Shown: positions 397 through 30,913, counted from the first letter of the stretch. The stretch is 64,000 nt of DNA from an uncultured Anaerolineales bacterium (GCA_964383935.1 CAYLIE010000001.1:148543-212542), one strand, 5' to 3'. The notes: generated by a model from the sequence alone, not told the origin. Made by a program: numbers and translations.

Positions 397-460
397 GCAA
401 CGGTGACTCTCCATATCTCTTTGCGGAAAGAGAATTCTGACAGTGAGGAGAAGAGACCTT

Positions 461-1753
461 ATGGCCAGAGAACTTAAGGTTTGCGTGATAGGGGGAGGTA
501 GCACTTATACACCGGAACTGATAGAAGGCTTTATCGAGAGGCAAGCGGAATTGGGGCTCGCCACAGTCACCTTGATGGATATAGACGAGGATAGATTGAG
601 CGTGGTGGGGGGGTTCGCTAAACGCATGATCAAGGCGACGGGTTCGCCCATCGACCTCGTTCTATCCACTGAGCGGAAAGAGGCGCTGGAGGGAGCAGAC
701 TATGTGATCAGTCAGATCCGTGTGGGAGGCAACGATCAGCGGGTGATAGATGAGAAGATTCCCTGGCGCTTCGGCATAGTGGGGCAAGAGACGACGGGCC
801 CCGGGGGCTTCGCCAAGGCTTTGCGCACTATCCCGGTCATGTTGAATATCGCAGCAGATATGGAGCACCTATGTCCCCAAGCATGGTTGATCAACTTCAC
901 GAACCCCTCTGGGTTGATCACAGAGGCTCTGGTCAAGCACAGCAAGGCACAGGTGATCGGACTCTGCAATCTACCTATCAACATGATCCACACCGTGGCT
1001 GGCCATCTGGGCGTTTCACCCCAAAGGATCACCCTCGACTATGTAGGGCTTAACCACCTGAGTTGGGTGAAGAGGGTCTATCTGGATGGCCGGGAGGTGA
1101 CTAAGGAAGTATTAGCCAAGGCCATCACAGAAGCGCGCCAGGCCGCGAAAGGTCATCCTATCTTTAGCCCAGAACTCCTGGAAGCGTTGGGCATGCTCCC
1201 TTGCTACTATCTGCGTTATTATTACCACCATGACGAGGTATTCGAGGAACAGAAGAGGGCGGGCAAGAGTCGCGGCGAAGAAGTGCAGGAGGTAGAGAAA
1301 AGGCTCTTGGCCATGTACGCCGACCCTCACCTTGTCAGCAAGCCTAAAGGACTGGAAAAGCGGGGAGGGGCTCTCTACTCCACAGCTGCGGTATCCCTTA
1401 TCGCGGCCATCGCCGGCAATAAGAACGAGGTGCACATAGTCAACTGCCAGAATAGAGGCGCCATAGCAGACTTGCCCGAGGGTTCTGTGGTTGAGGTGCC
1501 TTGTCTGATAGGAGCGGCGGGCGCGATCCCATTGACCGTTGGTTACCTGCCGGTTATGATCAGAGGGCTGATCCACTCTGTCAAAGCCTATGAAGAGCTA
1601 ACCATTGAGGCTGCGGTGACCGGGGGTCGCAAGATTGCTCTACAGGCACTATTGAACCACCCCTTGGTTCCCAGTTTTGGGGTGGCGAACGCCCTTTTGA
1701 ATGCTATTCTGGAAGCCAATAGGGACTACCTCCCCCAATTCTTCAGTAAGTAA
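461..1753 (+). CDS. Glycoside hydrolase family 4 (NAD/Mn-dependent 6-phospho-glycosidase, CelF/ChbF-like)
   Basis: N-terminus MARELKVCVIGGGSTYTPEL is typical of GH4. The ORF is 436 aa. The track start at 443 is GTG, and the ATG at 461 is preceded by GGAG. Confidence 0.75.
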   Translation: MARELKVCVIGGGSTYTPELIEGFIERQAELGLATVTLMDIDEDRLSVVGGFAKRMIKATGSPIDLVLSTERKEALEGADYVISQIRVGGNDQRVIDEKIPWRFGIVGQETTGPGGFAKALRTIPVMLNIAADMEHLCPQAWLINFTNPSGLITEALVKHSKAQVIGLCNLPINMIHTVAGHLGVSPQRITLDYVGLNHLSWVKRVYLDGREVTKEVLAKAITEARQAAKGHPIFSPELLEALGMLPCYYLRYYYHHDEVFEEQKRAGKSRGEEVQEVEKRLLAMYADPHLVSKPKGLEKRGGALYSTAAVSLIAAIAGNKNEVHIVNCQNRGAIADLPEGSVVEVPCLIGAAGAIPLTVGYLPVMIRGLIHSVKAYEELTIEAAVTGGRKIALQALLNHPLVPSFGVANALLNAILEANRDYLPQFFSK

Positions 1754-1803
1754 GGAGAGGTATAGTGAAATCGGTTCGCAGTTGAACCGTTTTTGGGGGT
1801 AGC

Positions 1804-2799
1804 ATGAACTATGTGTTAGGTGTAGACGGCGGGGCCTCTAAGACCCTTTGTCTGGTGGGGAGCGAGGATGGCAATATCCTAGGCTTTGGTCGTGGTGGGC
1901 CGAGCAACCATCAAGTGTGTGGCCTTGAGGCAGCGGTGGCCCAGATCGCCCATTCCGTTAAGGAGGCCCTTGCGCAGGCGCAGGCATCTCGTGAGGAGGT
2001 GCGACTAGGCATCTTCTGCCTGGCAGGTGCTGACTTACCCGAAGATTATGCTATGCTCAGCCAAGCGGTCGAGGATCTTGGAGTGTGCCCGAAGGTCGTA
2101 GTGAAGAATGATACTATGGCTGCCCTGCGCTGTGGGCTCTCGCGGCCCTGGGGCGTGGTAGTCGTCTGCGGGACGGGTACTAATGCGGCTGGCCGTGCTC
2201 CCGATGGGCGCGAGATCATTCTCCCTGGGTTAGGTTACATCTCCGGCGATTGGGGCGGAGGAGCCGGGATCAGTCAAGAGATCATACGCCGTGTCATGCG
2301 TGCTTGGGACGGTCGGGGTAAACCGACCGCCCTTCTGCAAATGGTCCTTGACTGTTTGGGTGTATCGTCTCCGGAGTTCTTGCTTCAAACGCTCTATCAC
2401 AACCAACTGGAGCAGCATCAACTCCTAGGGCTGGCGCCGCTCCTTTTCGAGGCAGCCTATATAGGGGATGAGGTAGCTTGCCAATTGGTTAAAGAAGTGG
2501 GAACGGAAGTAGGGGTTACAGCTCGAACCCTCATTCGCAGGCTGTCGTTGCAGGATAAAGATGTGGAGGTGGTTCTGGGAGGCAGCATCTTTAAGGCCAA
2601 GGGCCCACTTCTCATCGACACGGTAAAGGGGGTCGTCCATGAGGTAGCGCCTCGAGCCTCTATCGTATTGCCGAAGTTCGAGCCGGTGGTGGGGGCTCTG
2701 TTTCTGGCCCTGGAGACCGCAGGGGTGGAAGTCACAGGGACGGTCGGAGAGAACATCAGAACCACCTTGCCCCAGGAATTAGTCATCGAAAGGCGGTAG
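1804..2799 (+). CDS. BadF/BadG/BcrA/BcrD-type ATPase, N-acetylglucosamine kinase-like
   Basis: MNYVLGVDGGASKT at the N-terminus and a central VVVCGTGTNAAG match the ASKHA-fold GlcNAc kinase family. Confidence 0.65.
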   Translation: MNYVLGVDGGASKTLCLVGSEDGNILGFGRGGPSNHQVCGLEAAVAQIAHSVKEALAQAQASREEVRLGIFCLAGADLPEDYAMLSQAVEDLGVCPKVVVKNDTMAALRCGLSRPWGVVVVCGTGTNAAGRAPDGREIILPGLGYISGDWGGGAGISQEIIRRVMRAWDGRGKPTALLQMVLDCLGVSSPEFLLQTLYHNQLEQHQLLGLAPLLFEAAYIGDEVACQLVKEVGTEVGVTARTLIRRLSLQDKDVEVVLGGSIFKAKGPLLIDTVKGVVHEVAPRASIVLPKFEPVVGALFLALETAGVEVTGTVGENIRTTLPQELVIERR

Positions 2800-2808
2800 C
2801 GTGTCTAT

Positions 2809-3819
2809 ATGGATTGTGATTGTCCCCCTGTCGAAATCGTATGTCTTGGAGAGGCCCTAATCGATCTCATTTCCGTGGAAAAGGGCGTTTCCCTGGCTCA
2901 AGCCCGGACCTTTGAGAAAGCGCCAGGAGGTGCACCGGCCAACGTGGCCGTAGGATTGGCCCGGCTGGGGGTGCAGAGTGGCTTCATGGGCAAGGTAGGA
3001 GATGACGAGTTTGGACGATTCTTGGCCAGTACTTTGGCCGATAACGGCGTGGACATTTCGGCTTTGCTCTTTTCCCAGGAGACACGCACTGCCTTGGCCT
3101 TCGTCTCCTTGAAGCAAGGTGGCGAACGGGAGTTCATGTTTTATCGCCACCCCAGTGCGGATATGCTTATTCGCCCTGAGGAGATCGATAAGGACTACAT
3201 AAAAGGTGCCAAGGTCTTCCATTTTGGCTCCATCAGCCTTCTCAGCGAGCCTAGTCGTGGTGCGACTTTGGAGGCCCTGCGCTGCGCCCAGGAGCATGGC
3301 CTGTTCGTATCATACGACCCCAACCTACGGCTTTCCCTCTGGCCCTCTCCTGCTGAAGCGCGACAAGGGATAGAGTTAGGTTGGCATTTCGCCGACGTAG
3401 TCAAAATCAGCACAGAGGAGATGGAGTTCTTGGCTGGCACTTCAGATCTAGACCGCGGGACGGATCACCTATTGCGTTCGAAGTTGAAACTATTGGTTAT
3501 CTCCCGGGGCCGAGAGGGCTGCTATTTCGCCACAAAAGAGGAGCGTGGCTACGTTCCCGGATACCGGGTAGCCACCGTTGACACGACGGGGGCAGGTGAC
3601 GGCTTTGTAGCCGGCCTATTGGCCGGCTTACTAGAAATCGGGTTCCGAGTGGGTTCAAGGGAAGAGATCACTGATGTCCTTCGCCTAGCCAATGCCGTGG
3701 GGGCCCTCACCGTGACCAAGCGAGGAGCCATCCCTGCCTTGCCCACTAGAGATCAGGTATCGAAGTTCATCGGAGATCTGGACTTGGACAAAGCGAGAAC
3801 AAAAGCAGGAAAAGGGTGA
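2809..3819 (+). CDS. PfkB-family carbohydrate kinase (fructokinase/ketohexokinase-like)
   Basis: CLGEALIDL...GGAPANVAVGLARLG near the N-terminus and DTTGAGDGFVAG near the C-terminus are the two PfkB signatures. Confidence 0.75.
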   Translation: MDCDCPPVEIVCLGEALIDLISVEKGVSLAQARTFEKAPGGAPANVAVGLARLGVQSGFMGKVGDDEFGRFLASTLADNGVDISALLFSQETRTALAFVSLKQGGEREFMFYRHPSADMLIRPEEIDKDYIKGAKVFHFGSISLLSEPSRGATLEALRCAQEHGLFVSYDPNLRLSLWPSPAEARQGIELGWHFADVVKISTEEMEFLAGTSDLDRGTDHLLRSKLKLLVISRGREGCYFATKEERGYVPGYRVATVDTTGAGDGFVAGLLAGLLEIGFRVGSREEITDVLRLANAVGALTVTKRGAIPALPTRDQVSKFIGDLDLDKARTKAGKG

Positions 3820-3849
3820 TCTTTGGCCTTCGGCTGAGGAGTCCCCGCT

Positions 3850-4629
3850 ATGAAGATTGTCCCCGAGAGAAAACTGCAGGTGGAAGGCCTGCGCGTGGAA
3901 ATGTACGCCGATCGATGCCAGATGGGAGGAGCCGCCGCTTTTCGGGTAGCGACTCACATGGAGAGGCTCCTGCTTAACAAAGCGCAATTGTCAATGGTCT
4001 TTGCTGCCGCTCCATCGCAGAACGAATTCCTCTCCATCTTGTCTTCCTTGGATGGACTGGCGTGGGAGAGGGTGGTTGCCTTTCACATGGACGAATACGT
4101 TGGCCTGACGCCTGAGGCTCCGCAGAGCTTCAGGTGCTACCTGAAGGAACACCTATTGGCGAAAGTTCGGCCAGGCACTGTTCACCTCATCAGAGGTGAG
4201 GCAGCTGACCTGCTGGCTGAGTGCCAGCGCTACAGCGAGTTGCTGCAGAGATATCCTGTTGACATCGTGTGTGCTGGTATTGGCGAGAATGGACACTTGG
4301 CCTTCAATGATCCTGGTGTGGCAGACTTTGCTGATCGGGCCACTGTCAAAGTGGTAGAATTAGAAGAGCGATGTCGGGCCCAGCAAGTTCATGACGGCTG
4401 TTTTACCCACATAGAGTTGGTGCCAAGGAAAGCCATAACCCTGACACTTCCTGCCCTAATGGCAGCACAGACAATCTTCTGCATGGTGCCCGGGCCGAGA
4501 AAGGCTGAGGCTGTCAAAGCCACAGTCAGAGGATCAATCGAAACCAGTTGCCCAGCCACTATCCTCCGTCAGCATAATCAGGCTATTCTGTTCCTCGATC
4601 GCGATTCAGCACACTTAATCGAGGTCTAG
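3850..4629 (+). CDS. nagB: Glucosamine-6-phosphate deaminase/isomerase
   Basis: 259 aa. It has the NagB/6-phosphogluconolactonase-fold motifs MDEYVGL and GIGENGHLAFNDPG. Confidence 0.7.
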   Translation: MKIVPERKLQVEGLRVEMYADRCQMGGAAAFRVATHMERLLLNKAQLSMVFAAAPSQNEFLSILSSLDGLAWERVVAFHMDEYVGLTPEAPQSFRCYLKEHLLAKVRPGTVHLIRGEAADLLAECQRYSELLQRYPVDIVCAGIGENGHLAFNDPGVADFADRATVKVVELEERCRAQQVHDGCFTHIELVPRKAITLTLPALMAAQTIFCMVPGPRKAEAVKATVRGSIETSCPATILRQHNQAILFLDRDSAHLIEV

Positions 4630-4798
4630 CACCTACCTTCCGGTGTAGCCTTCGGCGTCCCAACGGGTCAGGATGCTCTGATTGTCTTGCGTGGAAAGAG
4701 GGAACCGTGCCAGGGACGGTGTCGGAGATGAAGGCTACTTTGAGACAGGCAAAGTCCACAAGAGAAGGTTCGTATTTTGGCTTGTGCGGGGCCCCTGG

Positions 4799-7195: not shown

Positions 7196-7438
7196 GTGGA
7201 GGTGAGAGGTAGGGAGAGGGTTATCGGGGAGTTCAAGATCGTAGAGACAGAGGATGGCTACCGCATCGAGATCAAAGGCGACAAGGAGAAGATGAAGGAG
7301 ATGCTTTCTGGTCTCCGGGGGCGCAAAGGCCGAAGCCGCCACTTTCATCCTTTCGGCTTCGGCCTTGGTCGGGGCTTCTGGGGTGAGATGGGTCCCTGGT
7401 GTTGCTGGTGGGAGGAGGAGAAAGAGGGCTCAGAGTAG
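7196..7438 (+). CDS. Small hypothetical protein (80 aa, Lys/Glu-rich N-terminus, Gly/Trp-rich C-terminus)
   Basis: A GTG-initiated ORF with the purine-rich stretch GGAGGTGAGAGG just upstream. No family recognised. Confidence 0.3.
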   Translation: MEVRGRERVIGEFKIVETEDGYRIEIKGDKEKMKEMLSGLRGRKGRSRHFHPFGFGLGRGFWGEMGPWCCWWEEEKEGSE

Positions 7439-7457
7439 TGCTGAGGTGGCAATCTAG

Positions 7458-7490
7458 AAAAGGGGAGCAGTCTTATCACTGCTCCCCTTC
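7458..7490. terminator. Bidirectional intrinsic terminator between convergent genes
   Basis: An 11-bp stem AGGGGAGCAGT/ACTGCTCCCCT with loop CTTATC. A TTTT tract follows on the minus-strand reading; the plus-strand tail is weaker. Confidence 0.5.
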
Positions 7491-7520
7491 ATCCTCCTTA
7501 GCCAGTGAGGCCCCAGGGGC

Positions 7521-9485
7521 CTATGGCAGGGCCAGGAGATCCAAGTTGTCGAAGGCGCAGTGCGCGCCTGTCTCCTCAAAGGGGCCGCACCCGAAGCCGA
7601 TATAGCCAGACCCATACTCACCCACGAGACTGGTGAGCACCGACTGGCCGTTGACGTAGGCGGTGAGGCTACCGTTTTCCACGATGAGCCGGATATGGTT
7701 AGTGGCGTTGCCCTGGATGATAGCCTCAGAGGGGGTGAACTCCTGACTCCACTCCCATGCTCCCTCCACGTATCGTCCCAAAGACACATAGCCATCGCCG
7801 GAGATGGCGAACTCATAGAGGTTATTGACGTCTTGCACCCCGAAGACGACGGCGATCTCGTTGTTATCGGTGCCCTCCACTTGGGTGGCATCCACATCCA
7901 GATCGAAGTTGCTAAATACCGCCACTGTGCTTGCCCCCAAGACGAAACTATCCACCCCTTCTCCTTGGTAGATGGAAACCAAGTGATAGGCACCATCTTG
8001 GACGTAAATGGAGTATACGCCTTCCTCTTCGCCCTCGAACCAGCCATTTCTGTTGTCATCGAAGGCGTCTATGAGACGCTGAGCCTGAGGAGTAGGGCCT
8101 GCCTCAGCGCCTAGGATGGTGAAAGTGCCACTTTGCACCAGTTGCCCTTCCACATAGAGTTGTACCTCGTATGTGCCAGGCGTATATCCCCCTTCCGGTT
8201 CCCAATACCACCAACCGTTCCCCTCTGCCTGGGCCCAGGTTTCAGTGGCCTCATTGAGGGTCTGACCCCCCACCTGCCAAACCATGCGCACCGCCTTGTC
8301 TTTCATCCCGCTGTACTGCCAGCAGGTATAAACTCGAGGGGTGCCGGAGGGGAAGGTATTTGTCGGGTTGATGCAATTATCGTTTTCATCCACTGCTTCT
8401 GCGAAAGTGAAGGGAGTGATGGTAGGGCCTACCTCACTGATCACACTCAACTTCTCTCCCCAAACCTCTCCTTTCAGGACCTTGGTCCCTCGCATCACTT
8501 CCACGGCGACGGGGTTGCCCTCGGGATTCGTCTTGAGAACATCGCAGACATCGGCCATGGTGTAGAGGTTGATCCCCTTCATCGTTATGAGCACGTCGCC
8601 GGCCTCAATACCCGCCTTGGTCGCCGGGCTGTTGTCGGACACGCCGTATATGAAGAGTCCCTCTTCCACCGGCAGATCGAAATACCAGGCCACGTCTGCA
8701 TTGTTAGTTATGGCGTTGGTCCCGATCCAGAGCACGTTTTCCCCCGATGCCAGCCTCTCGATGATAGGCTTGGCGTGACTGGAAGCGATAGCGAAGTTGA
8801 GCCCTGAAACCGGCCTTCCTGAGCGAGTGTAATCCATTCCCAGGGTGTTGATCCCTATCACCTCGCCCCGCATGTTGACCAGGGGGCCTCCGCTGTTTCC
8901 GGGGTTGATGTCTGTATCCGTCTGGACCAAGTCTTCGAGTTCAGCGAATTCATCCCACTGAGCGTGGATTTTGCTCACCACGCCTCGGTTGATGGTGAGG
9001 TCGGCACCCAACTCAGAGGCCAGGGGGTAGCCAAGGGCTATCACCTCCTCGCCCAGCGTCAACTCGTCGCTCTCACCTAGTGTGGCGGTAACATAACCCT
9101 CTCCGGAGATATCTATCACCGCCAGATCCTCACAGGTACTGAGGCCCACGAGCCGGGCGGATAGCCAGCGGTTGATGCCCTGTACGTAAGCCTTCACGAT
9201 CGCTGCCCCTTCCACAACGTGGGCGTTGGTCACCGTCAGGCCGCTCTCATCGTATATGATCCCCGTCCCCGTGTAGGCACCATCTGGGAATTCGGCGTAG
9301 ATCAAAACCGTAGATGGCGTGAGAGCCTCTACGATACCCGCCACGGTGATGGGAGTGAGCATCGGTTCTGGGGTCGGGGAAGCGGGTATCGGCGTGTCGG
9401 TGGGAGGTGGGGTAGCGGTTCCCCCTCCACAGCCCGCGACACCCATAGCCACCAGGATGACTGCCAAGAAGAGTACTCTTTTCAT
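7521..9485 (-). CDS. Lipoprotein trypsin-like serine protease (S1C, HtrA/DegP-like) with PDZ domain and a roughly 300-aa Trp/Gly-rich C-terminal extension
   Basis: Signal peptide with lipobox MKRVLFLAVILVAMGVAGC. Catalytic motifs TNAHVV, DLAVI and GNSGGPL. PDZ-like IYGVSDNSPATKAGIEAGDVLI. Confidence 0.8.
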   Translation of the reverse strand: MKRVLFLAVILVAMGVAGCGGGTATPPPTDTPIPASPTPEPMLTPITVAGIVEALTPSTVLIYAEFPDGAYTGTGIIYDESGLTVTNAHVVEGAAIVKAYVQGINRWLSARLVGLSTCEDLAVIDISGEGYVTATLGESDELTLGEEVIALGYPLASELGADLTINRGVVSKIHAQWDEFAELEDLVQTDTDINPGNSGGPLVNMRGEVIGINTLGMDYTRSGRPVSGLNFAIASSHAKPIIERLASGENVLWIGTNAITNNADVAWYFDLPVEEGLFIYGVSDNSPATKAGIEAGDVLITMKGINLYTMADVCDVLKTNPEGNPVAVEVMRGTKVLKGEVWGEKLSVISEVGPTITPFTFAEAVDENDNCINPTNTFPSGTPRVYTCWQYSGMKDKAVRMVWQVGGQTLNEATETWAQAEGNGWWYWEPEGGYTPGTYEVQLYVEGQLVQSGTFTILGAEAGPTPQAQRLIDAFDDNRNGWFEGEEEGVYSIYVQDGAYHLVSIYQGEGVDSFVLGASTVAVFSNFDLDVDATQVEGTDNNEIAVVFGVQDVNNLYEFAISGDGYVSLGRYVEGAWEWSQEFTPSEAIIQGNATNHIRLIVENGSLTAYVNGQSVLTSLVGEYGSGYIGFGCGPFEETGAHCAFDNLDLLALP

Positions 9486-9646
9486 CTCTTTCTCCTTCCC
9501 TACGCGTCTTAAAGCATCAAAATTATATCATAGTTTGAAAATTCTCATAGTGGGTAATTGGTACTAGGGTATTCTCATCTATCTGCAAGCCGAGAAGGGC
9601 TATAATCCAACATTGTAGAGGAACATTGTCCAGTTGTCAAATACGA

Positions 9647-9675
9647 TTGCTACCTGATCTGGAGCGTGATATAAT
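9647..9675 (+). promoter_or_regulatory. Sigma70-like promoter (TTGCTA, 17 nt, TATAAT) upstream of degV
   Basis: TTGCTACCTGATCTGGAGCGTGATATAAT ends 9 nt before the degV ATG at 9685. Confidence 0.4.
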
Positions 9676-9684
9676 CGCTTCAAG

Positions 9685-10534
9685 ATGAATTTGAGGATAG
9701 TCACCGATAGTGTAAGTGACCTTCCCCCAGAGTTGGTGGAGAGGTTCGGGATAGTGGTCGTGCCAGCCCTCATCCGCTTCGGGAACCGGACTTACTTGGA
9801 CGGGATCGAGATCACCCACCAGGAGATGTACCGGCGCATGTTAGAGGAGGACGCGGTTCCCAAGAGTTCGCAACCCTCCCCTGGCCAGTTCCTGGAGGCC
9901 TACAAAAAAGTGGCAGTCCAAGGGGCCTCCATCCTCTCCATCCACGTAACCGCCAAGACCAGTGGTGTCTGGCAGTCGGCCTCCCTGGCCCGTTCTATGC
10001 TTCCCGAAGCCGATATCGAGGTCATCGATTCGGCTTCCATCTCCATGGGCACAGGTTTCATCATTCTGGAAGCGGCCAGGGCCATCGAGGCCGGCAGAAG
10101 CAAAGGCGAGGTTCTAGCCCCTCATCGAGGAGATCAAATCCCGCGTGAATGTCTATGCCACCGTGGGCACCCTCAAATATCTGCGTTTGAGCGGCCGGGT
10201 GGGCCACATGGAGGAAATCTTTGGCTCCTTCCTAGATATCAAGCCCATCATCGCTGTAGAAGACGGAGTGGTAAAGGCGATTGATAAGGTGCGCACTCGC
10301 AAGAAAGCCCTGGGTCGCGTCATAGAATTGACAAAGCAAGCGGTGGGCACAGAGAGGCTTATCAACGCCGCTGTGATGCATACCGCAGTGGAAGAGGAAG
10401 CCCTGGGGTTCAAGGAGACAGTGAGGAGGAATTTCAACTGCCAAGAACTCTTGTTCGGCGAAGCAGGAATAGCCTTGGGGGTCAATGCTGGGCCGGGGGT
10501 ATTGGGGATAGTAGCCTATAGAGTGGATCTGTAG
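9685..10534 (+). pseudogene. DegV-family fatty-acid-binding protein, disrupted by a 1-nt frameshift in a C4 run (or a sequencing error)
   Basis: Two ORFs, 9685-10284 in frame 1 and 10145-10534 in frame 2, together give a 283-aa DegV protein (MNLRIVTDSVSDLPPEL ... TLKYLRLSGRVGHM). Frame 1 reads EVLAPHRGD, whereas shifting by one C gives the expected EVLA-LIEEIKSRVNVYATVG. The frame-2 upstream stop TAG is at 10115-10117. Confidence 0.7.
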
Positions 10535-22900: not shown

Positions 22901-23539
22901 ATGGCAAAGGTTACAGGCTTCGACAAGGAACTCCTCTCCTACTTCGAGAGTCCCCCTCTCCTCATCGTCCTCTCTGGCCCTTCGGGGGTGGGGAAGGATT
23001 CGGTGCGGAAGCGGATGGAGGAACTGGGTTGTCCTGTCCATTTCGTGGTCACGGCCACCGACCGTCCCCGCCGAGAAGAGGAGATCGATGGGGTGGATTA
23101 CCATTTTCTCTCCACGGGGGAGTTCGAGAGGATGATAGAAGAGGGAAAGTTTCTGGAGCACGCTATTGTCTATGGTCAATACAAGGGGATCCCCAAGGAG
23201 AGTGTACGACAGGCCCTGGCGCAGGGCGAGGATGTCCTTTTGCGGATCGACGTCCAAGGGGCCAGGACCATAAGGGAGATCGCTCCAGAGGCGTTACTGA
23301 TCTTCCTTTCCGCCTCCTCTATGAGGGAGTTGACAAAGCGGCTTAGGGAACGGAAGACGGAGAGCGCGGAGGAGATGATGGAGAGGGTGGCTACCGTGCA
23401 GAGGGAGATGAGGTATCTTCCAGAGTTCGACTATGTGGCCCTCAATCGCGAAGGCAGGCTCGACGAGGCGGTGGAGGAGATCATGGCCATCATCCGCGCC
23501 GAGAAGTGTCGCGTCCATCCCCGCCGCGTCTCTATTTAG
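22901..23539 (+). CDS. gmk: Guanylate kinase
   Basis: LIVLSGPSGVGKDS P-loop ... TATDRPRREEEIDGVDYHF. Confidence 0.85.
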   Translation: MAKVTGFDKELLSYFESPPLLIVLSGPSGVGKDSVRKRMEELGCPVHFVVTATDRPRREEEIDGVDYHFLSTGEFERMIEEGKFLEHAIVYGQYKGIPKESVRQALAQGEDVLLRIDVQGARTIREIAPEALLIFLSASSMRELTKRLRERKTESAEEMMERVATVQREMRYLPEFDYVALNREGRLDEAVEEIMAIIRAEKCRVHPRRVSI

Positions 23540-23553
23540 GGAGGGGTTGTGTT

Positions 23554-24375
23554 ATGGCTAAAGATGTGCGCCGTTCGACTATCGCTGGCTCCTGGTACCC
23601 TGGGAGCCCGGAGAGGCTAGGAGAGACGGTAGATAGGTTCCTAACCAACGCCGGACCTGGCCAGATCAAAGGAGAACTGGTAGGTCTTATCGCCCCTCAC
23701 GCCGGCTATCAATATTCGGGTCAGGTAGCGGCCTACGCCTACGTTGAGTTGCAGGATAGGGAATACGAGAAGGTCGCTCTCTTGGCCCCCAGCCACCGGG
23801 TCTATGTGGGGGAGTTCGCGGTCACCAGTTACGCTTACTACGAGACGCCCCTAGGCTTAGTGCCCGTGGATGGCGACCTGGTGGCCCAGTTGGAGGTGCA
23901 AATCCCTCTGAACAAGACCGACGAGAACCTGGAACACTCGCTGGAGATCCAACTCCCCTTCTTGCAACGGACGCTAGGGGAGTTTTCTTTACTTCCCATC
24001 CTCATGGGCGGCCAGTCCTGGTCTTCTTGCCAGGTGTTGAGCCAGGGGTTGGCCCAGGTTCTCCCCGGCCAGAACGCCCTTTTGGTGGCTTCCACCGACC
24101 TCTCCCATTTCTACGATTACCGCACCGCCGTTGAATTGGACAAGAAGGCCTTAGCCCGGATAGAGGCTTTCGACCCCGAGGGGCTATCTCAGGACCTTGA
24201 AGCCCAGAGGTGCGAGGCATGCGGTGGGGGGCCGGTGATGACTATGATGCTGGCGGCTCGCGCCCTGGGGGCGGACAAGGCCAAGGTCCTAGAGTACAAG
24301 AACTCCGGTGATGTGACCGGGGATAAATACCGAGTAGTGGGCTATGCCGCGGGGGTGGTGTATAAGACAAAATAA
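23554..24375 (+). CDS. MEMO1-family protein (AmmeMemoRadiSam system protein B)
   Basis: GSWYPGS ... IAPHAGYQYSG ... SHRVY ... DLSHF ... VVGYAAGVVY. The internal ATG at 23554 is preceded by GGGAGGGG. Confidence 0.7.
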   Translation: MAKDVRRSTIAGSWYPGSPERLGETVDRFLTNAGPGQIKGELVGLIAPHAGYQYSGQVAAYAYVELQDREYEKVALLAPSHRVYVGEFAVTSYAYYETPLGLVPVDGDLVAQLEVQIPLNKTDENLEHSLEIQLPFLQRTLGEFSLLPILMGGQSWSSCQVLSQGLAQVLPGQNALLVASTDLSHFYDYRTAVELDKKALARIEAFDPEGLSQDLEAQRCEACGGGPVMTMMLAARALGADKAKVLEYKNSGDVTGDKYRVVGYAAGVVYKTK

Positions 24376-24442
24376 TAGTAGATAGAGATCAAAGAAAAGT
24401 TAAGCGATCCTGAGTCTAGATCTCCATGAAAGGGAGGAAAAG

Positions 24443-24742
24443 GTGAATATCTATGTAGGCAATTTGTCCCGAGATGTCACCGAGGAGGATTTGCGAGAGG
24501 CGTTTGAAGCCTTCGGGCAGGTCGCATCGGTCAACATCATCAAGGACAGGTTCAGCGGTGAATCGAGGGGGTTCGGGTTTGTGGAGATGCCACAAAAGGC
24601 TGAAGCCCAAGCCGCCATTGCCGACTTGAACGGCAAGGATTTGAAGGGCCAAGCGCTAAATGTGAACGAGGCTCGCCCTCGTAGGGAAGGACGAAGAGAT
24701 AGAGGAGGCGGAGGCAGGGGCGGCGGTCGGCGCTCCTGGTAA
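24443..24742 (+). CDS. RRM-type glycine-rich RNA-binding protein
   Basis: IYVGNLS is the RNP-2 motif and RGFGFVEM the RNP-1 motif, followed by an RGG-rich tail. GTG start after GGGAGGAAAAG. Confidence 0.8.
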
Positions 24743-24781
24743 GCGGTTAGCAAGGGAGTCGAAGAGTAGGGTTCGCCTATA

Positions 24782-24840
24782 GGGGCTTTGCGGCTTGCAT
24801 CATAGTCACTGCCGCGGCATTGGAGCGAAGCCGCAAAGCC
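24782..24840. repeat. Long near-perfect hairpin (about 16-bp stem)
   Basis: GGGCTTTGCGGCTTGC ... GCGAAGCCGCAAAGCCC form an inverted repeat around a 26-nt loop. Confidence 0.45.
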
Positions 24841-24855
24841 CTGCGGGCGGAGTGA

Positions 24856-24912
24856 TGGGGATAAGTTCCGGGTAGTGGGCTACGCCGCCGCGGCGCTATA
24901 TCGGGCAAGTTA
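24856..24912 (+). repeat. Decayed duplicate of the 3-prime end of the MEMO1-family gene
   Basis: The reading GDKFRVVGYAAAALYRAS-stop compares with the original GDKYRVVGYAAGVVYKTK-stop at 24318-24375. Nucleotide identity is about 75% over 48 nt. Confidence 0.5.
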
Positions 24913-25019
24913 ACAAGTGGGGCGGAGTTAGAGAAGAAATTTGAGCTCGCAATCCAAGTCCTATATACTATAGAGGAGGACGTCATTGTTTGCGCTTAGA
25001 GATGAGGAGGCTTGCTACA

Positions 25020-25766
25020 ATGGCCAGAAGATATAAGAACTCTCCAATAGTTGAGGCCCTATGCGAGTTTCAATTTGAGCCTGGTCTTCCTTGGGATCTG
25101 ACTATTCCTGGTCTGGTTTATGAGGAAATAAGCGACGAGTTTCCTAAGAAACGGCAGGCCAAGCAACTTCAAGTCGAGTTGTCAGCAACGGTCGACGAAG
25201 GAATTACCCAGAAAGTGGCTGCGTCTGACCGGATGCAATTCTTGCGAGAGGATGAGAAGGCTTTGGTACAAGTGGGGCCGAATCTGCTAGTCATTAACCA
25301 CCTAAAGCCATATCCGACATGGGATAAGTTCTTGCCCCTGATCAAGAAGGGCTTTGAGGTCTACCGTAGAGTGGTAGGCCCAGAGGGGATGCGTCGCATT
25401 GGCTTGCGCTACATTAACCGCATCGAGATTGCAGGTCAGCGCGTGGAATTGGAAGACTATTTCGACTTTCGACCTTTCGTTGGGGACAAGTTACCTCAAG
25501 ACTTCGGTCAATTCATTGTGGGTATCCAAGTCCCCTATGAGGATTTGAGAGATGTGCTAAGAATCCAGCTTGCAAGCGCGAGAGTTGACATTCCTGATAC
25601 GGTTGCGATCATGCTCGATCTTGACTACTTTATGGCCCAGCCTGGACAGGTGGCGCTAGACAAAGTCATCGATTGGGTGAAAGTTGCCCATGATCGTGTC
25701 GAAGTGGCCTTTGAAGGCTGTATCACCGACCAACTGAGGCAGATCTTCGAGGAGGTAAAAGCATAG
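25020..25766 (+). CDS. Hypothetical protein, TIGR04255-like (N-terminal YKNSPIVEALCEFQF motif); low-GC cassette gene 1
   Basis: MARRYKNSPIVEALCEFQFEP resembles the conserved N-terminus of the TIGR04255 family of unknown function. GC is about 47% against about 60% in flanking genes. Confidence 0.4.
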   Translation: MARRYKNSPIVEALCEFQFEPGLPWDLTIPGLVYEEISDEFPKKRQAKQLQVELSATVDEGITQKVAASDRMQFLREDEKALVQVGPNLLVINHLKPYPTWDKFLPLIKKGFEVYRRVVGPEGMRRIGLRYINRIEIAGQRVELEDYFDFRPFVGDKLPQDFGQFIVGIQVPYEDLRDVLRIQLASARVDIPDTVAIMLDLDYFMAQPGQVALDKVIDWVKVAHDRVEVAFEGCITDQLRQIFEEVKA

Positions 25767-26303
25767 ATGCCGTACTCTGCAAGTGTTGAAGGATCAACGA
25801 AAGGCCCGTTTCTACCTGCCGTATTTCCTCTACGCAAGGAAGCGCTCTGGGGACAGGAAATCGCGCGGGCTGAGGCCGATGTAGTAAGCGTACCAGGCTC
25901 TGTATCTCTGTCAGAACCTCTAGAGAGGGAACTAATTTGGCGAGAAAGCGGTGCGTCTATTGTCCGCTTTTGGGATCGCGAAGTCCAGATGCTTGAGGAA
26001 CTGTATGTTTTCAGGAAGCGGATGGAGGTGTTACGATTCCTTGATGTGCACCCTTTCCTCGTCCCACTATTGTTAGAGGCTTACGCCAAGATCGGGAAGT
26101 ATTTTGAGCCATACCACCAGGTCTTTCTTGAAGTCATCAGTGACCCAGAAGCGATCAACGATCGCCAACTGTTCGCTTTCATTGGGACACGCCTTTCGCC
26201 AGACGAGGCTCTCGATAGCCTTGAGCGCTTCGATGAGGAGTGGTGGCTGGACAGTCTGGACGAAGCGCAGGGCAAGCTGTGTATTGATGTGGAGTTTGTA
26301 TGA
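25767..26303 (+). CDS. Hypothetical protein (178 aa); low-GC cassette gene 2
   Basis: It starts 1 nt after the gene 1 stop and overlaps gene 3 by 4 nt (ATGA). No family recognised. Confidence 0.4.
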   Translation: MPYSASVEGSTKGPFLPAVFPLRKEALWGQEIARAEADVVSVPGSVSLSEPLERELIWRESGASIVRFWDREVQMLEELYVFRKRMEVLRFLDVHPFLVPLLLEAYAKIGKYFEPYHQVFLEVISDPEAINDRQLFAFIGTRLSPDEALDSLERFDEEWWLDSLDEAQGKLCIDVEFV

Positions 26304-26677
26304 GTTTTGACTGGACTGAGTATCTTGCTCTGGCACAGGATCTTGCAGGGCAACGAGTGACTCCCCCCACCGTGGAAGCCAAGTTGCGCTCTGCAATCAG
26401 TAGGGCTTACTACGCGGCCTTCTGCAAGGCGCGAAACCATTTGCGTGATAGAGAAGGCCATTTGATCCCCGATACTGGCAAAGCGCACGGAATCGTTTCA
26501 GACCTGTTCCAGCGTAGCCCTCATAGACCGCGAAAGAAGATAGGTGCAAATTTGAATCGCCTGCGGGAAAATCGAAGAAAAGCAGACTATGATGATTTCA
26601 TTAGAAACCTCCCCAATATCACTAGCAAGGCTTTAAGACAGAGCGAGCAAATAGTCACCGAATTGGGTAAGCTCTGA
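26300..26677 (+). CDS. Hypothetical HEPN-like small protein (125 aa); low-GC cassette gene 3
   Basis: The helix RSAISRAYYAAFCKARNHLRDREGH has an R-x4-H spacing, and a C-terminal RKADYDD follows. This is reminiscent of HEPN-fold proteins. Weak call from pattern only. Confidence 0.3.
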   Translation: MSFDWTEYLALAQDLAGQRVTPPTVEAKLRSAISRAYYAAFCKARNHLRDREGHLIPDTGKAHGIVSDLFQRSPHRPRKKIGANLNRLRENRRKADYDDFIRNLPNITSKALRQSEQIVTELGKL

Positions 26678-26763
26678 CCCTCCAATGTAAACATACCAAG
26701 AATCCTCCTTGCTGGCTACCTCTGTTACACACTTTAGGCTGGTGTTCCCTGCAGGACAGGAAA

Positions 26764-29307
26764 GTGAAATTCGCAGAAATCGCCGTCAATGCCCCCCTCC
26801 GAGGGCGGCCAAAAACAAACGAGGGGCTCGCCCCCGGCTACTCCCACCTGGCCCCTACCTTCCACTACTCTATCCCCTCTCACCTCGAAGGCCTGGTGGC
26901 TCCGGGGCAACTGGTTCGCGTCCCCTTCGGCCCTCGCATGATGCAGGGGGTCGTCCTGGCCCTAAGGGATACCTCTCCCGTGGAGGAGACCCGCGACATC
27001 GAGGAGATCGCCGCCCTTCAGCCGGTCCTCCTCCCCTTCCAGATTGAACTGGCCCGCTGGATCAGCCACGAGTACCTCTCCCCCCTGATAGATGCCCTTC
27101 TCCTCATGCTCCCCCCAGGCTTGGGCCGCCGCGCCCGCACGATGATAAGCCTGGCTCCCGATGTTGCTCCGTCCTCTGACCTGACAAGCCAGGAGAGGGC
27201 CATCCTCGACTACCTGAAGCGAGAGGGGGAGACGAGGCTCGACCTTCTCTCTCGAAGGCTCAAGATGGCGGAGGCAAGGGAGGCGGTCGAGGGGCTCATA
27301 AGTCGGGGGTTTCTCCTCAAGCGCTCCCACCTTGAGCCCCCCAGGGTGAGGCCCAAGAGGGAGAGGGTCGCCTGGCTCAAGGTGGAGGTTGATGAAGAAA
27401 TCCTGGCCTCCTTGAAGCGAGCCCCCAAGCAGAGGGCTACTCTGGAATACCTGGCCCAAAACGATGGGGCCTCTGTCTCCGAGATATATAGCCAGGCGGG
27501 GGGAAGCAGTAGCGTGCTGGCGGCCCTGGAGGAGAAAGGGCTGATCGAACTCGTACAAGAGGAGGTATGGCGGGACCCCCTGGCTGACCGGGCCTTCATC
27601 TTGACCCGCCCTCCCAAACTCACCCCTCCCCAAGAGGCCGCCCATAAAGCCATCTCTGAGAGCCTCGACTCTCCCACCTCTCAGGTCTTCCTCCTCCATG
27701 GGGTGACGGGCAGCGGCAAAACCGAGATATATCTGCGGGCCCTGGAGGATCTGCTGGCCAGGAAGCAACAGGCCATCTGCCTCGTTCCCGAGATCGCCCT
27801 CACCCCCCAGACCATCCGCCGCTTCGGGGCCCGTTTCCCCGGGCGGATAGCCGTCCTCCATAGCAAACTCTCCTTGGGAGAGCGGTACGACACCTGGCGA
27901 CGGGCCAGAGAGGGCCAGATCGATATCGTCATCGGCTCCCGTTCCGCCATCTTCGCCCCCTTGCCCCGTTTGGGCCTCATCGTCATCGACGAGGAGCATG
28001 AGTGGTCGTATAAACAGGAGAAGACCCCCCGCTACCACGCTCGGGATGTGGCCATAAAACTCGCCGAGTTGACCGGAGCCGCAGTGGTTCTGGGGAGCGC
28101 CACCCCCGATGTGGGCACCTACTACCGTGCGGAGAGGGGAGAGTACCATCTCCTGAGCCTCCCCCAGCGGATTATGGGCCATAGAAAAGGCTTGGAGGAG
28201 CAGAGGGCCAGATACGCCATCCCCGATACCAGATACGCGGTGCGAGAACTGGAGAAGGGGTACGATGCTCAGTATATGGACCTCCCCCCCGTCCAAGTGG
28301 TGGACCTGCGCCAGGAACTTCGGGCTGGGAATCGGGGCATCTTCAGCCGGGCCCTCCAGGCTGCTATGAAGGAAACCTTGGCCGCGGGAGAGCAGGTGAT
28401 CCTATTCCTCAACCGTCGAGGAGCGGCCACTTTCGTTATGTGCCGCGATTGCGGCTATGTGATTAAGTGCCCCCGCTGCCAGGTGCCCCTGACCTATCAT
28501 TCCGCGGGGGAAGACCTGGTCTGCCACCATTGCAACAAAAGAAGCCGACCCCCCACCGTCTGCCCTAACTGCCAGAGCAAGCGGATTAAATATTTCGGCA
28601 TCGGCACGCAAAGGGTAGAAGAAGAAGTGGAACGTCTCTTCCACCGGGCTCGTACTATCCGCTGGGATAGGGATACCACGGGGCGAAAGGGGGCCCATGA
28701 AGCCATCTTGGAGCGGTTCATCAGCCGCCAAGCCGATGTGATGGTGGGCACCCAGATGGTGGCTAAGGGGCTCGATCTGCCCCTGGTTACCCTGGTGGGG
28801 GTGGTCACGGCGGATACCGCTCTGCACCTTCCCGATTTTCGGGCCGGGGAGCGGACCTTTCAACTTCTGACCCAGGTGGCCGGGCGCGCGGGGAGGAGCA
28901 TCTTGGGCGGCAAGGTGATCGTCCAGACCTACACCCCCCACCATTACGCCATTCAAGCGGCCAGCGGGCACGACTACGAGGCTTTCTATCGCCAGGAACT
29001 CGCCTTCCGCCGGGAGCAGGGGTACCCGCCCTATAAGAGGCTGGTGAGGCTCATCCGCGTGGGGAGGAGTTATAAGCGCTGCCAGGAGGATGCGGAGAGG
29101 CTCTATCGCGTTCTCGAGAATAAGATAGCGCGGCTGGGCTTGCCTGGCGTGGACCTCATCGGCCCGGCACCGGCCTTCCACGCTCGCCTGCGAGGGAACT
29201 ACCGTTGGCATATCATCGTCCGCGCCTGGGACCCCTACCCCCTCTTAGAGGATATGCCTCTCCCCCGAGGCTGGCGGGTGGACGTAGATCCGGTTAGCGT
29301 GCTGTAA
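26764..29307 (+). CDS. priA: Primosomal protein N-prime (replication restart helicase PriA)
   Basis: LLHGVTGSGKTEIY Walker A and DEEHE Walker B. A Cys-rich zinc-binding region CRDCGYVIKCPRCQVPLTYH...CHHCNKR...CPNCQS. 847 aa. Confidence 0.85.
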   Translation: MKFAEIAVNAPLRGRPKTNEGLAPGYSHLAPTFHYSIPSHLEGLVAPGQLVRVPFGPRMMQGVVLALRDTSPVEETRDIEEIAALQPVLLPFQIELARWISHEYLSPLIDALLLMLPPGLGRRARTMISLAPDVAPSSDLTSQERAILDYLKREGETRLDLLSRRLKMAEAREAVEGLISRGFLLKRSHLEPPRVRPKRERVAWLKVEVDEEILASLKRAPKQRATLEYLAQNDGASVSEIYSQAGGSSSVLAALEEKGLIELVQEEVWRDPLADRAFILTRPPKLTPPQEAAHKAISESLDSPTSQVFLLHGVTGSGKTEIYLRALEDLLARKQQAICLVPEIALTPQTIRRFGARFPGRIAVLHSKLSLGERYDTWRRAREGQIDIVIGSRSAIFAPLPRLGLIVIDEEHEWSYKQEKTPRYHARDVAIKLAELTGAAVVLGSATPDVGTYYRAERGEYHLLSLPQRIMGHRKGLEEQRARYAIPDTRYAVRELEKGYDAQYMDLPPVQVVDLRQELRAGNRGIFSRALQAAMKETLAAGEQVILFLNRRGAATFVMCRDCGYVIKCPRCQVPLTYHSAGEDLVCHHCNKRSRPPTVCPNCQSKRIKYFGIGTQRVEEEVERLFHRARTIRWDRDTTGRKGAHEAILERFISRQADVMVGTQMVAKGLDLPLVTLVGVVTADTALHLPDFRAGERTFQLLTQVAGRAGRSILGGKVIVQTYTPHHYAIQAASGHDYEAFYRQELAFRREQGYPPYKRLVRLIRVGRSYKRCQEDAERLYRVLENKIARLGLPGVDLIGPAPAFHARLRGNYRWHIIVRAWDPYPLLEDMPLPRGWRVDVDPVSVL

Positions 29308-29308
29308 G
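29273..29308 (+). repeat. Direct repeat copy 1: 36 bp, the priA 3-prime terminus including its stop codon
   Basis: GGCGGGTGGACGTAGATCCGGTTAGCGTGCTGTAAG matches 29944-29979 at 33 of 36 positions. Confidence 0.8.
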
Positions 29309-29457
29309 TAGTGCCCACAGGGCTTTAGTCCAAGGCTACCACGTACCAGCGTTACTAGTTCCCTCTTTGCCTCCCTGATAGATTTATGATATATTTGCCT
29401 TGAGGCTCTATTCTATCTGGCGGCGTGCCTCTAGCAAGCCAGGATAGGAGGTATTCA

Positions 29458-29700
29458 ATGGCCAAAAGGATTTACAAAGTCATCTTCGAGCCCCAAGAGG
29501 AGGGCGGCTATACGGTAACCGTTCCCTCCCTGCCTGGCTGCATCTCCGAAGGTGATAGTTACGAGGAAGCCCTGGCTAATATCAAAGAGGCCATGGCCCT
29601 CTACCTCGGGAGCCTCGCCGCCGATGGGTTGCCTATCCCCGAGGAGAAAAACCTCATCCTGGAAATCGAATCCCCCTATGAACCGACTCCCAGCCCTTAA
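29458..29700 (+). CDS. hicB: HicB-family antitoxin (UPF0150)
   Basis: MAKRIYKVIFEPQEEGGYTVTVPSLPGCISEGDSYEEALANIKEAMALYL is the HicB/RNase-H-like fold signature. RBS AGGAGG; it overlaps the hicA start. Confidence 0.7.
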   Translation: MAKRIYKVIFEPQEEGGYTVTVPSLPGCISEGDSYEEALANIKEAMALYLGSLAADGLPIPEEKNLILEIESPYEPTPSP

Positions 29701-29902
29701 GCCTAAAGAGGTTGAGCGCGTTCTCCTCCGGGCGGGCTTTGTGGAGCATCGCCAAAAGGGAAGCCACAAGATCTTCAAAAAAGGAAGCCTACGAGTAGTG
29801 CTCCCTTATCATGGCAAAGATCTAAAGCGGGGAACGTTAAGGGCCATCATCGAACAAGCCCATCTGACTGTTGAGGAGTTCCTAGGGCTCTTGAGGGGAT
29901 AG
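29678..29902 (+). CDS. hicA: HicA-family mRNA interferase toxin
   Basis: LKPKEVERVLLRAGFVEHRQKGSHKIFKK is the YcfA/HicA dsRBD-like motif with a conserved His. 75 aa. Confidence 0.75.
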   Translation: MNRLPALKPKEVERVLLRAGFVEHRQKGSHKIFKKGSLRVVLPYHGKDLKRGTLRAIIEQAHLTVEEFLGLLRG

Positions 29903-29917
29903 AAGAGCAAAGCGTAG

Positions 29918-29943
29918 CGCCGTCCTTTAGGGCGGCGTTTTCT
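29918..29943 (+). terminator. Rho-independent terminator after hicA
   Basis: CGCCGTCC-TTTA-GGGCGGCG is followed by TTTTCT. Confidence 0.5.
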
Positions 29944-29979
29944 GGCGGGTGGACGTGGACCCGGTCAGCGTGCTGTAAG
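29944..29979 (+). repeat. Direct repeat copy 2 of the priA 3-prime terminus
   Basis: GGCGGGTGGACGTGGACCCGGTCAGCGTGCTGTAAG also encodes WRVDVDPVSVL-stop. All three differences from copy 1 fall in codon third positions. Confidence 0.8.
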
Positions 29980-30005
29980 ACGACATTCCCTGCCCCCAAC
30001 TCGTG

Positions 30006-30054
30006 GCCCCGGATTTCGCCTGTCCTGGCTGTAGTGGGCCAGGGAATCCGGGGC
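30006..30054. repeat. Long imperfect hairpin (about 20 bp of paired stem)
   Basis: GCCCCGGATTTCGCCTGTCCTGGC ... GCCAGGGAATCCGGGGC. Confidence 0.4.
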
Positions 30055-30113
30055 ATCTTTCTATCTATCAATAACGCAGGGCAGGTTTCCATACCTGCCC
30101 ATTTGGCCTAAAC

Positions 30114-30167
30114 GTAGCGTCGGGCTTTAGCCCGACGAAGATCCGTCACCCTAAAGGGCGACGCTAC
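30114..30167. repeat. Two further copies (one inverted) of a small GC-stem/TTTA-loop palindrome related to the hicA terminator
   Basis: GTAGCGTCGGGCTTTAGCCCGACG at 30114-30137 and the reverse complement of CGTCACCCTAAAGGGCGACGCTAC at 30144-30167 both resemble GTAGCGCCGTCCTTTAGGGCGGCG at 29913. Confidence 0.45.
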
Positions 30168-30398
30168 AATCTGTTTTGCGTCGTTCGCGGGCCACCTTGA
30201 CAATCTAGAACGTTTGTGCTATGATTGTCCCATTGGGATTTGGTCGTTTGCCATTTGGCCGAGGTGGTTGTTTCCCATTTTTTATTTTAACCACCCCCCC
30301 TGCGCCTAGAGCGGGGTATATGCATCCTTCGCCTGCCACTCATTTGTCCTGAGCGGAGCCGAAGGGCCTTTTGCCCTTAAGCCTGTTATAATAAGGCT

Positions 30399-30854
30399 AT
30401 GAAGTTCCTGGTGGACTCCATGCTGGGCCGGCTGGCCAAGTGGCTCCGCATCCTAGGCTATGACACCCTCTACTTCTCCTCCCTGGACGACAGCGATCTG
30501 GTGCGCATCGCCCGCGCCGAAGGACGCATGGTCCTCACCCGCGACCGGATGATGCTCAGGCGGAGGGGGATAGACGCCCTCCTCATCGAAAGCGATGACT
30601 TCAGGGAGCAGATCCGCCAACTCCTCCACGATTTGAACCTGAACCTAGACCGCTCTTTCAGCCGCTGCCCGGTCTGTAACAGCCCCTTGGAAGAGGTGGC
30701 CAAGGAAGCGGTCCGGGAGCGGGTCCCCCCTTACGTCTTCCAGACCCAGGAGCGGTTCAGCCTCTGCCCCCAGTGCGGCAAGGTCTACTGGCGAGGTACC
30801 CATTGGCAGAGGATGAGAGAAAGGCTCAAGAGGCTAGAAGAGGAAGCGCTCTGA
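30399..30854 (+). CDS. Mut7-C RNase domain protein (PIN-like, with a C-terminal zinc ribbon)
   Basis: MKFLVDSMLGRLAKWLRILGYDT is typical of PF01927. Two CxxC pairs follow (CPVCNS, CPQCGK). Confidence 0.7.
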   Translation: MKFLVDSMLGRLAKWLRILGYDTLYFSSLDDSDLVRIARAEGRMVLTRDRMMLRRRGIDALLIESDDFREQIRQLLHDLNLNLDRSFSRCPVCNSPLEEVAKEAVRERVPPYVFQTQERFSLCPQCGKVYWRGTHWQRMRERLKRLEEEAL

Positions 30855-30913
30855 ATAGTGGTCTGGAGGGCGGTTTGAAGTGCACCCCTCTTGTGATATA
30901 CTAGATTTTGGAG

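Follow-up and report, generated by a model that had tools for sequence, protein, structure and literature searches.

Insertion with long target duplication has been described for restriction-modification genes (Nobusato et al. 2000, Gene 259:99; Furuta et al. 2010, Nucleic Acids Res 38:2428, PMC2853133). According to the criteria of the latter survey, the insert is smaller than 20 kb, is associated with no other mobile element and is bracketed by a duplication of more than 30 bp. The cases presented there are mostly from naturally competent species and carry duplications of 46 bp to about 420 bp, the 46-bp repeats of Haemophilus influenzae overlapping the 3' ends of genes; the mechanism was left open, with the suggestion that double-strand breakage is involved. 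The present analysis concerns a hicB-hicA (hicBA) toxin-antitoxin pair situated behind priA in the genome of an uncultured Anaerolineales bacterium (GCA_964383935.1, CAYLIE010000001.1:148543-212542). The whole stretch of 64,000 nucleotides is hereafter called the window, and its numbering is used throughout. The hicBA insert is bracketed by two copies of the priA end and is probably an integrase-independent insertion with long target duplication, which arose via homology-anchored import from a relative.

Two other kinds of described systems resemble this locus in part. Prophages e14 and 21 in icd of Escherichia coli, as well as ICESt1 and its integrase-less cis-mobilizable (CIME) derivatives in fda, insert at the 3' end of a gene and supply a replacement end. 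At those loci, as would be the case here, the gene is kept intact by an incoming 3' end that differs mainly synonymously, while the resident end is displaced to the far side as a direct repeat. Those elements, however, encode or need a dedicated recombinase and use a fixed att core, whereas for the window insert, only 633 bp long, no recombinase was found and both boundaries and targets vary. The minimal mobile elements of Neisseria and the hot spots of defence islands are similar in that different cassettes occupy one spot, here the one between priA and the Mut7-C gene, with exchange through flanking homology being apparent. The Neisseria elements, though, are by definition without flanking duplications, in contrast to the window insert, which is bracketed by a duplicated gene end.

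The target gene, priA (26764..29307, + strand, 847 aa), is an open reading frame (ORF) with the Pfam domains PriA_3primeBD, DEAD, Zn_ribbon_PriA and PriA_C, and its stop codon occupies positions 29305-29307. Sequence comparison placed copy 1 of the repeat, CTGGCGGGTGGACGTAGATCCGGTTAGCGTGCTGTAAG, at 29271-29308 (+), where it forms the functional in-frame end of priA with the haplotype GTA/GAT/GTT and runs one base past the stop. Copy 2, CTGGCGGGTGGACGTGGACCCGGTCAGCGTGCTGTAAG, is found at 29942-29979 (+) as a non-coding, orphan priA end. The copies are identical at 35 of 38 positions, and their starts are 671 nt apart. The first-pass annotation of this DNA had reported a direct repeat of the priA end, 36 nt long, with three mismatches at third codon positions. 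The repeat is indeed as described, its length being 38 nt since a shared CT precedes the earlier 36-mer, and the mismatches were located at 29286, 29289 and 29295, the third bases of GTA/GTG, GAT/GAC and GTT/GTC, so that both copies encode WRVDVDPVSVL followed by a stop. Three random differences out of three would all fall at third codon positions with p = 0.037.

At three mismatches or fewer, two copies of the repeat are present in the 64-kb window versus none expected, and the absence of any match in 100 shuffles rules out a chance repeat. A search for further copies of the 36-mer had been proposed earlier. A degenerate scan of a metagenome collection returned eight stretches: two are orphan copies and six are priA ends, of which one is covered for no more than the final ~80 nt. 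A scan of viral contigs returned none. The scans of window, metagenomes and viral contigs together rule out a dispersed, genome-wide repeat. The whole structure, both repeat copies included, recurs with 100% identity in a Logan contig of independent origin (L001), and a contig from ENA (L093) carries hicBA, the hairpin and the downstream copy; the agreement of three independent assemblies excludes an assembly artefact.

The 633 bp between the copies hold hicB and hicA as the only genes, together with the promoter-like region and the terminator that had been noticed earlier. The left part of the insert (29309..29457, +), analysed by comparison with other hicBA copies and by promoter scanning, begins with about 23 nt that are common to no other fetched hicBA copy and continues with the region upstream of hicB, in which a sigma-70-like, promoter-like site, TTGCCT-17-TATATT, is located at 29367-29395. 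The hicB gene (29458..29700, +; PF15919, 7e-14) would encode a single-domain antitoxin, and hicA (29678..29902, +; PF07927, 4.7e-19) a toxin of 74 aa. The two genes are adjacent and co-oriented with an overlap of 23 nt, and the combination of HicA_toxin and HicB_lk_antitox domains identifies the pair as HicAB. Like the type II systems of this family, it thus has both domains, overlapping genes and its own promoter-like site. It differs in that the antitoxin gene comes first, whereas in E. coli hicAB the toxin gene does, and in that HicB is only 80 aa long, matches just the N-terminal half of the PF15919 profile and has no DNA-binding domain. As judged from sequence, the insert is a hicB-hicA toxin-antitoxin (addiction) module with a promoter-like site and a hairpin terminator of its own.

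The right end of the insert, found by hairpin scanning, is a terminator-like hairpin resembling repetitive extragenic palindromic (REP) elements (29914..29943, +; GTAGCGCCGTCCTTTAGGGCGGCG, then TTTTCT). Its 9-bp, G+C-rich stem is followed by UUUUCU (29917-29943) directly before copy 2, and the final CT of this unit (29942-29943) also constitutes the first two bases of copy 2; related hairpins start at 30114 and 30144. No terminal inverted repeats pair the ends of the insert, the only inverted arms being those of the REP-like hairpins, and no fragments of other element genes were detected within its 633 bp. Matches to known RNA families in Rfam were absent from 24300-30900.

Comparison with the priA loci of relatives, a check suggested by the first-pass annotation, revealed both expected states. 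Seven close Anaerolineae relatives (L002, L082, L084, L086, L087, L088 and L089) have an empty site, with no hicBA after priA and a single copy of the priA end each; beyond their priA stop comes either the counterpart of what lies behind copy 2 in the window or other sequence. In the closest genome, the Anaerolineae metagenome-assembled genome W31_47 (L002; 89% nucleotide identity in priA), the stop runs directly into the homologue of window position 29980 onward. Alignment of this genome and of L086 with the window gives 89-90% both for priA and for the Mut7-C/mevalonate genes, and hicBA is missing from the space that separates the two. The site is occupied in L093, where hicBA of 91.6% nucleotide identity (8.4% differing) precedes the hairpin and orphan copy known from the window, which means that the occupied state exists in a second lineage. 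The presence of hicBA behind priA is a genuine strain-variable insertion polymorphism. The proposal of an insertion could have fallen either on a locus invariant among relatives or on a dispersed 36-mer; hicBA is polymorphic and the 36-mer is not dispersed. In a scan of one genome per species, comprising 80 priA loci and a search for a second priA end within 6 kb, neither such an end nor hicBA was seen, so the event is confined to one narrow clade.

The origin of the two copies can be read from their variants. At all 38 positions copy 2 agrees with the orphan of L093 and with the priA end as it stands natively in L082, L086 and L089, and it appears to be the ordinary priA end of the clade, displaced and now non-coding. 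None of the examined relatives has the A, T and T variants of copy 1; these window-unique codons end in A or T, matching the lower G+C content at third codon positions of the cassette (0.57-0.69, versus 0.77 in priA). Of the two, copy 1, within priA, is probably the allele that was imported, and the orphan probably the resident one. Because copy 2 is unchanged relative to three relatives and copy 1 has three changes, all synonymous, the copies are alleles from different lineages, each shaped while coding, and not a fresh duplication: had the end been duplicated in place, changes would be expected to accumulate in the non-coding copy no more slowly than at synonymous sites of the coding one, and the opposite is seen. 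The earlier suggestion of an insertion that carried a homologous gene end from a previous host is largely upheld, although the att mechanism attached to it is not supported. The last ~90 nt of priA contain six window-unique substitutions versus ~2 expected, a weak hint at a donor-derived tract upstream of the repeat, given that substitutions are clustered about as densely in another part of priA.

Among the priA ends of L002 and L082-L089, two haplotypes, GAC…GTC AGC and GAT…GTG AGT, predominate over the last 36 nt, and L085 has a mixed one (GAT, GTG, AGC). These haplotypes are common to lineages that differ by 10-14% over the gene, and such sharing suggests recombination around the priA end.

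When set beside the inserts described by Furuta et al., the window locus agrees in its structural features. The insert is absent from close relatives in which both flanks align (L002, L086); the duplication of 38 nt exceeds 30 bp and is single-copy in the empty genome; and the 633-bp insert, well below 20 kb, has no other mobile-element gene in it or nearby, its neighbours being priA, Mut7-C and mevalonate-pathway genes. What differs is the cargo, HicA/HicB in place of the restriction and modification genes for which the survey was screened, a requirement that reflects the scope of the survey and not the type of rearrangement. Small size, an empty relative, a duplication of more than 30 bp and of varying length, the lack of transposase and integrase, and a cargo capable of post-segregational killing are common to both. 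The known cargo is restriction-modification, while here it is hicBA, and in neighbouring cases an RRM or a DinB_2 gene, in uncultured Chloroflexota. Alleles from different lineages that differ mostly at third positions, as seen at the window locus, are not raised in the accessible portion of the survey, and the literature searched contained nothing specific on toxin-antitoxin cassettes with long target duplications. The assignment to an integrase-free class is made because repeat length and target vary between events and because neither a recombinase nor terminal inverted repeats are present.

This variation became evident from other members of the cassette family; in a large protein collection, the window HicA has four close clusters. 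The cassette (window 29429-29913, 90% nucleotide identity) is also found upstream of gyrA in L090 and L091, and in L092, again upstream of gyrA, the homology spans 29332-29907. These three cassettes adjoin AbiE and restriction genes, and in L090 and L091 the cassette lies inside an insert of ~910 nt that is bracketed by 54 nt duplicated from the region upstream of gyrA. In more distant hicBA relatives the identity of HicA drops to 64-68%. A duplication of 110 nt surrounds hicBA in L094, and one of ~190 nt does so in L096, L098 and L099, which derive from an unrelated AT-rich organism; in these three, hicBA lies 149 nt behind a gene for a 1123-aa protein, the last ~190 nt of which recur after the cassette. 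The differences between copies again concentrate at codon position 3, namely 9/11 in L096 (p = 0.0014) and 13/16 in L098. Altogether, the duplications of the various events measure 38, 54, about 70, 110 and 190 nt, and their targets are unrelated.

The gene, copy A and hicBA are ~99% identical between L096 (repeats at 3445-3635 and 4494-4684) and L098 (2445-2634 and 3494-3683), yet their orphans differ at 19/182 sites, 14 of them at codon position 3, while still encoding an intact peptide, and the islands downstream bear no relation to each other. The orphan gene end seems to act as a homology arm for island exchange. In L091, an N6_N4 methylase gene 2.3 kb from the complete hicBA begins with part of another hicA (4055-4211, 157 nt), which matches window 29723-29879 at 92% identity. 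It looks like the relic of another recombination event.

An insertion of this kind can be envisaged as follows. The donor would be a related member of the Anaerolineae in which hicBA already lay a few bases behind its own priA stop, and its DNA would enter the cell with the conserved priA end as the sole homology available for recombination. By one route, a circularised fragment comprising the priA end, hicBA and the terminator would integrate by a single Campbell-type crossover within CTGGCGGGTGGACGT, the identical first 15 nt of the repeat. By the other, a linear fragment would be anchored homologously in priA, its far end being joined illegitimately at the CT microhomology that precedes the resident stop by 38 nt. 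Either route would leave priA intact and displace one end copy as a non-coding relic, and if the insert were excised, the junction of the resulting circle would read …TTTTCT, the repeat, then TAGTGCCC…. The toxin-antitoxin pair would subsequently favour retention of the insert, and the orphan end may later serve as a homology arm for the exchange of downstream DNA.

Several considerations weigh against this interpretation. The steps are inferred and none was observed, and the present data do not discriminate between the Campbell-type and the homology-facilitated illegitimate routes. A homology of 38 nt with three mismatches is near the lower limit for recombination of the RecA type. The direction of import may also be the reverse: as the ~99% identity of L096 and L098 through hicBA and the divergence of their orphans imply that orphans can be overwritten at islet exchange, copy 2 could be the imported one. 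A donor with the GTA/GAT/GTT haplotype was not found among the relatives examined, and three hicBA contexts (L097, L100 and L101) have no flanking repeat. Finally, the search for a recombinase in the source genome covered the 64-kb window, and a trans-acting enzyme encoded outside it is a caveat.

Such an enzyme is central to a competing explanation, in which the 38-mers are attL and attR of a cis-mobilizable, integrase-less element, moved by a recombinase that is encoded elsewhere in the genome or by a helper, targets the 3' end of priA and acts on an attP with a replacement priA end. The distribution of variants is compatible with a crossover in the first 15 nt, which are identical in both copies and rightward of which copy 1 has one allele and copy 2 the resident allele; the priA end is extremely conserved across Chloroflexota, as integrase targets typically are; the window and L093 have orphan copies without a single difference, despite the 8.4% by which their hicBA differ (p about 0.02-0.04); and orphan priA ends in L083 and L085 point to repeated use of the site. 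We nevertheless consider this explanation rather unlikely. In line with the first-pass annotation, which had noted the lack of an integrase, no integrase, recombinase or transposase was detected in the insert, anywhere in the 1.09 kb that separate priA from Mut7-C, or in the syntenic genes further downstream, and the search beyond Mut7-C that it recommended encountered mevalonate-pathway and other housekeeping genes instead. For the 129 ORFs that lie behind priA in relatives, the 25 commonest families were listed; a recombinase family common to at least two ORFs is not among them, and a single occurrence could have escaped this count. The 36-mer and relatives of HicA are absent from the scanned viral contigs, on which grounds a phage origin was rejected as well. 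Moreover, the left boundaries of the orphans vary (38 versus 70 nt), and the same cassette family is flanked by duplications of differing targets, from 54 to 190 nt. The site-specific formation of attL and attR favoured in the first-pass annotation is thus not supported, there being no recombinase in or beside the insert, other left boundaries in further orphan priA ends and, at three further targets, duplications of 54, 110 and ~190 nt.

Toxin-antitoxin pairs are common survivors of decaying elements, and the insert might be the residue of a larger island or prophage that lost its integrase and everything but hicBA through internal deletions. Bigger islets do occur at this spot in relatives (L002, L085 and L083), but the same minimal structure of hicBA, hairpin and orphan is present in L093 at 8% divergence, the boundaries (29332 or 29429 to 29913) are common to the gyrA-context copies, which indicates that the cassette itself is the moving unit, and the 633 bp are free of fragments of other element genes; a decayed island is accordingly improbable. 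A further explanation is a plain target-site duplication, in which staggered cuts 38 nt apart were filled in, during a capture event of a transposition-like or end-joining kind, to give two identical copies that diverged in place. Repeats that abut the insert, the long and variable duplications such a model predicts, and the double-strand breakage suggested by Furuta et al. would all suit it, and a later allelic replacement of one copy could mask such a founding step in an ancestor. In the extant copies, though, copy 2 is unchanged relative to three relatives and all three changes of copy 1 are synonymous, the third-position bias recurs in L096 and L098, and both terminal inverted repeats and a transposase are missing, which leaves fill-in with a very low probability.

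A transposon, an insertion sequence or a miniature inverted-repeat transposable element (MITE) was rejected for lack of terminal inverted repeats and of a short duplication of fixed length, the duplication being 38 nt here and 38-190 nt across cases. Transcript retroposition, which had been raised by the variable long duplications, was ruled out since the part common to the cassettes extends into the promoter region.

The locus narrows down how such inserts may arise: as the two repeat copies are alleles of different lineages, a gene end must have come along with the DNA, and pairing of homologous sequence at this end probably contributed to the insertion or to later exchanges. It does not introduce a new kind of system, but widens the range of a rearrangement known from restriction-modification genes, which now includes toxin-antitoxin pairs and other small genes as cargo and Chloroflexota as hosts. 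The movement of toxin-antitoxin and defence genes in the absence of a transposase or integrase is poorly understood, and the locus provides a clean natural example with empty and occupied sites and with the same cassette present at other loci. It is conceivable, although this is put forward tentatively, that small addiction and accessory cassettes in uncultured Chloroflexota and in other phyla, such as the lineage of L096, generally spread in an integrase-free, homology-guided manner, carrying the 3' end of the gene in front of them, inserting at the orthologous end in a new host and leaving there an orphan that would serve as a portable homology arm when the next islet is exchanged. If so, orphan gene ends with third-position-biased divergence would constitute a readable record of transfers, and would offer the first mechanistic footprint for the "virus-like life cycle" hypothesised for Kobayashi's inserts with long target duplications.

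The signature recurs with other cargo, once more within the 64-kb window. Comparison with relatives revealed a second insertion of the same type at 23506..24913 (+), where a gene of the Memo family (23506..24375, +) is followed by an inserted gene for an RRM_1 RNA-binding protein (24443..24742, +). Behind the latter come a long hairpin (24782-24842) and, at about 24845-24913, the end of the Memo gene once more as an orphan. The orphan is 75% identical to the Memo end and encodes GDKFRVVGYAAAALYRAS-stop versus GDKYRVVGYAAGVVYKTK-stop. The site is empty in L084, whose native Memo end is 92% identical to the window orphan, and occupied in L002 and L082. A scan for gene ends over 1.0 Mb of fetched loci found L096 and a further case in L017, where a DinB_2/rubredoxin gene stands behind a radical-SAM gene with a 190-nt duplication; the scan missed the Memo case with its 75% identity. 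Its matches in L004 and L048 were tandem paralogues and that in L011 a dispersed repeat, and all three were discarded.

The segment between the Memo/RRM unit and priA (24916-26700) has no blastn counterpart in L002, L082 and L084, which carry both flanks, and is probably another variable islet. It contains ORFs of 258 aa (24990..25766) and 178 aa (25767..26303) and a HEPN-like ORF of 125 aa (26300..26677), the latter two of which may form a toxin-antitoxin pair.

On the other side of the hicBA insert, a variable intergenic stretch (29980..30398, +), delineated by comparison with relatives and by hairpin and promoter scans, extends up to the conserved right flank, a gene with a Mut7-C RNase domain (30399..30854, +) recognised by its domain match and by alignment with relatives. 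Restriction-modification and other islets occupy the position of this stretch in relatives: L002 has a type II restriction-modification system, its islet at 7353-10058 containing a 210-aa ORF besides genes for an N6_N4 methylase and a putative restriction enzyme, L085 has a restriction system made up of a methylase and a ResIII helicase at 300-4760, and L083 has an OLD-like TOPRIM nuclease. By its gene content, the region downstream of priA in these Anaerolineae behaves as a hot spot for toxin-antitoxin and restriction/defence genes. An orphan priA end of 70 nt follows an RraA-like gene in L085, and in L083 another one follows a truncated CDP-alcohol phosphatidyltransferase fragment and the OLD-like nuclease gene. 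Their left boundaries differ from the 38-nt boundary shared by the window and L093, possibly indicating different elements; both contigs are short, and the other side of each event lies outside the contig. Beyond Mut7-C, genes for mevalonate kinase, a cupin protein, diphosphomevalonate decarboxylase, an amino-acid-kinase-family protein, RNA cyclase and a metallo-beta-lactamase-fold protein follow, in synteny with relatives at least to position 33000, where the blast query ended.

Next to the orphan priA end lies a hairpin element of ~50-70 nt (CCCCGGATTT…GGGAATCCGGGG, 29985-30055). It adjoins hicBA in the gyrA context as well, with 94% identity (L090, 5407-5457; L091, 970-1020), and looks like a small dispersed MITE-like repeat. 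REP-like hairpins are located at 30076-30104 and at 30114-30167, the latter being an inverted doublet. Together with the one at 29914-29937, they belong to a set of GTAG-headed, G+C-rich hairpins that cluster downstream of priA in all relatives, occur also in L002, L085, L086, L090 and L093, and are rare in the rest of the window. A gene similar to those of REP-associated tyrosine transposases (RAYT) was not seen in the window, and a faint Y1_Tnp match is located 3.7 kb from hicBA in L094. Mobilisation of the REP/RAYT type was set aside, as this mechanism makes no duplications; the hairpins cluster downstream of priA, with one at the end of the insert.

Further downstream, a strong, near-consensus promoter-like site, TTGACA-17-TATGAT with a TG, is found at 30197-30225. 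The ~115 nt of non-coding sequence after it, upstream of Mut7-C, have no Rfam match and are conserved in L085 (78%) and L089 (85%), and the non-coding stretch at 30195-30398 may represent a leader or a small RNA.

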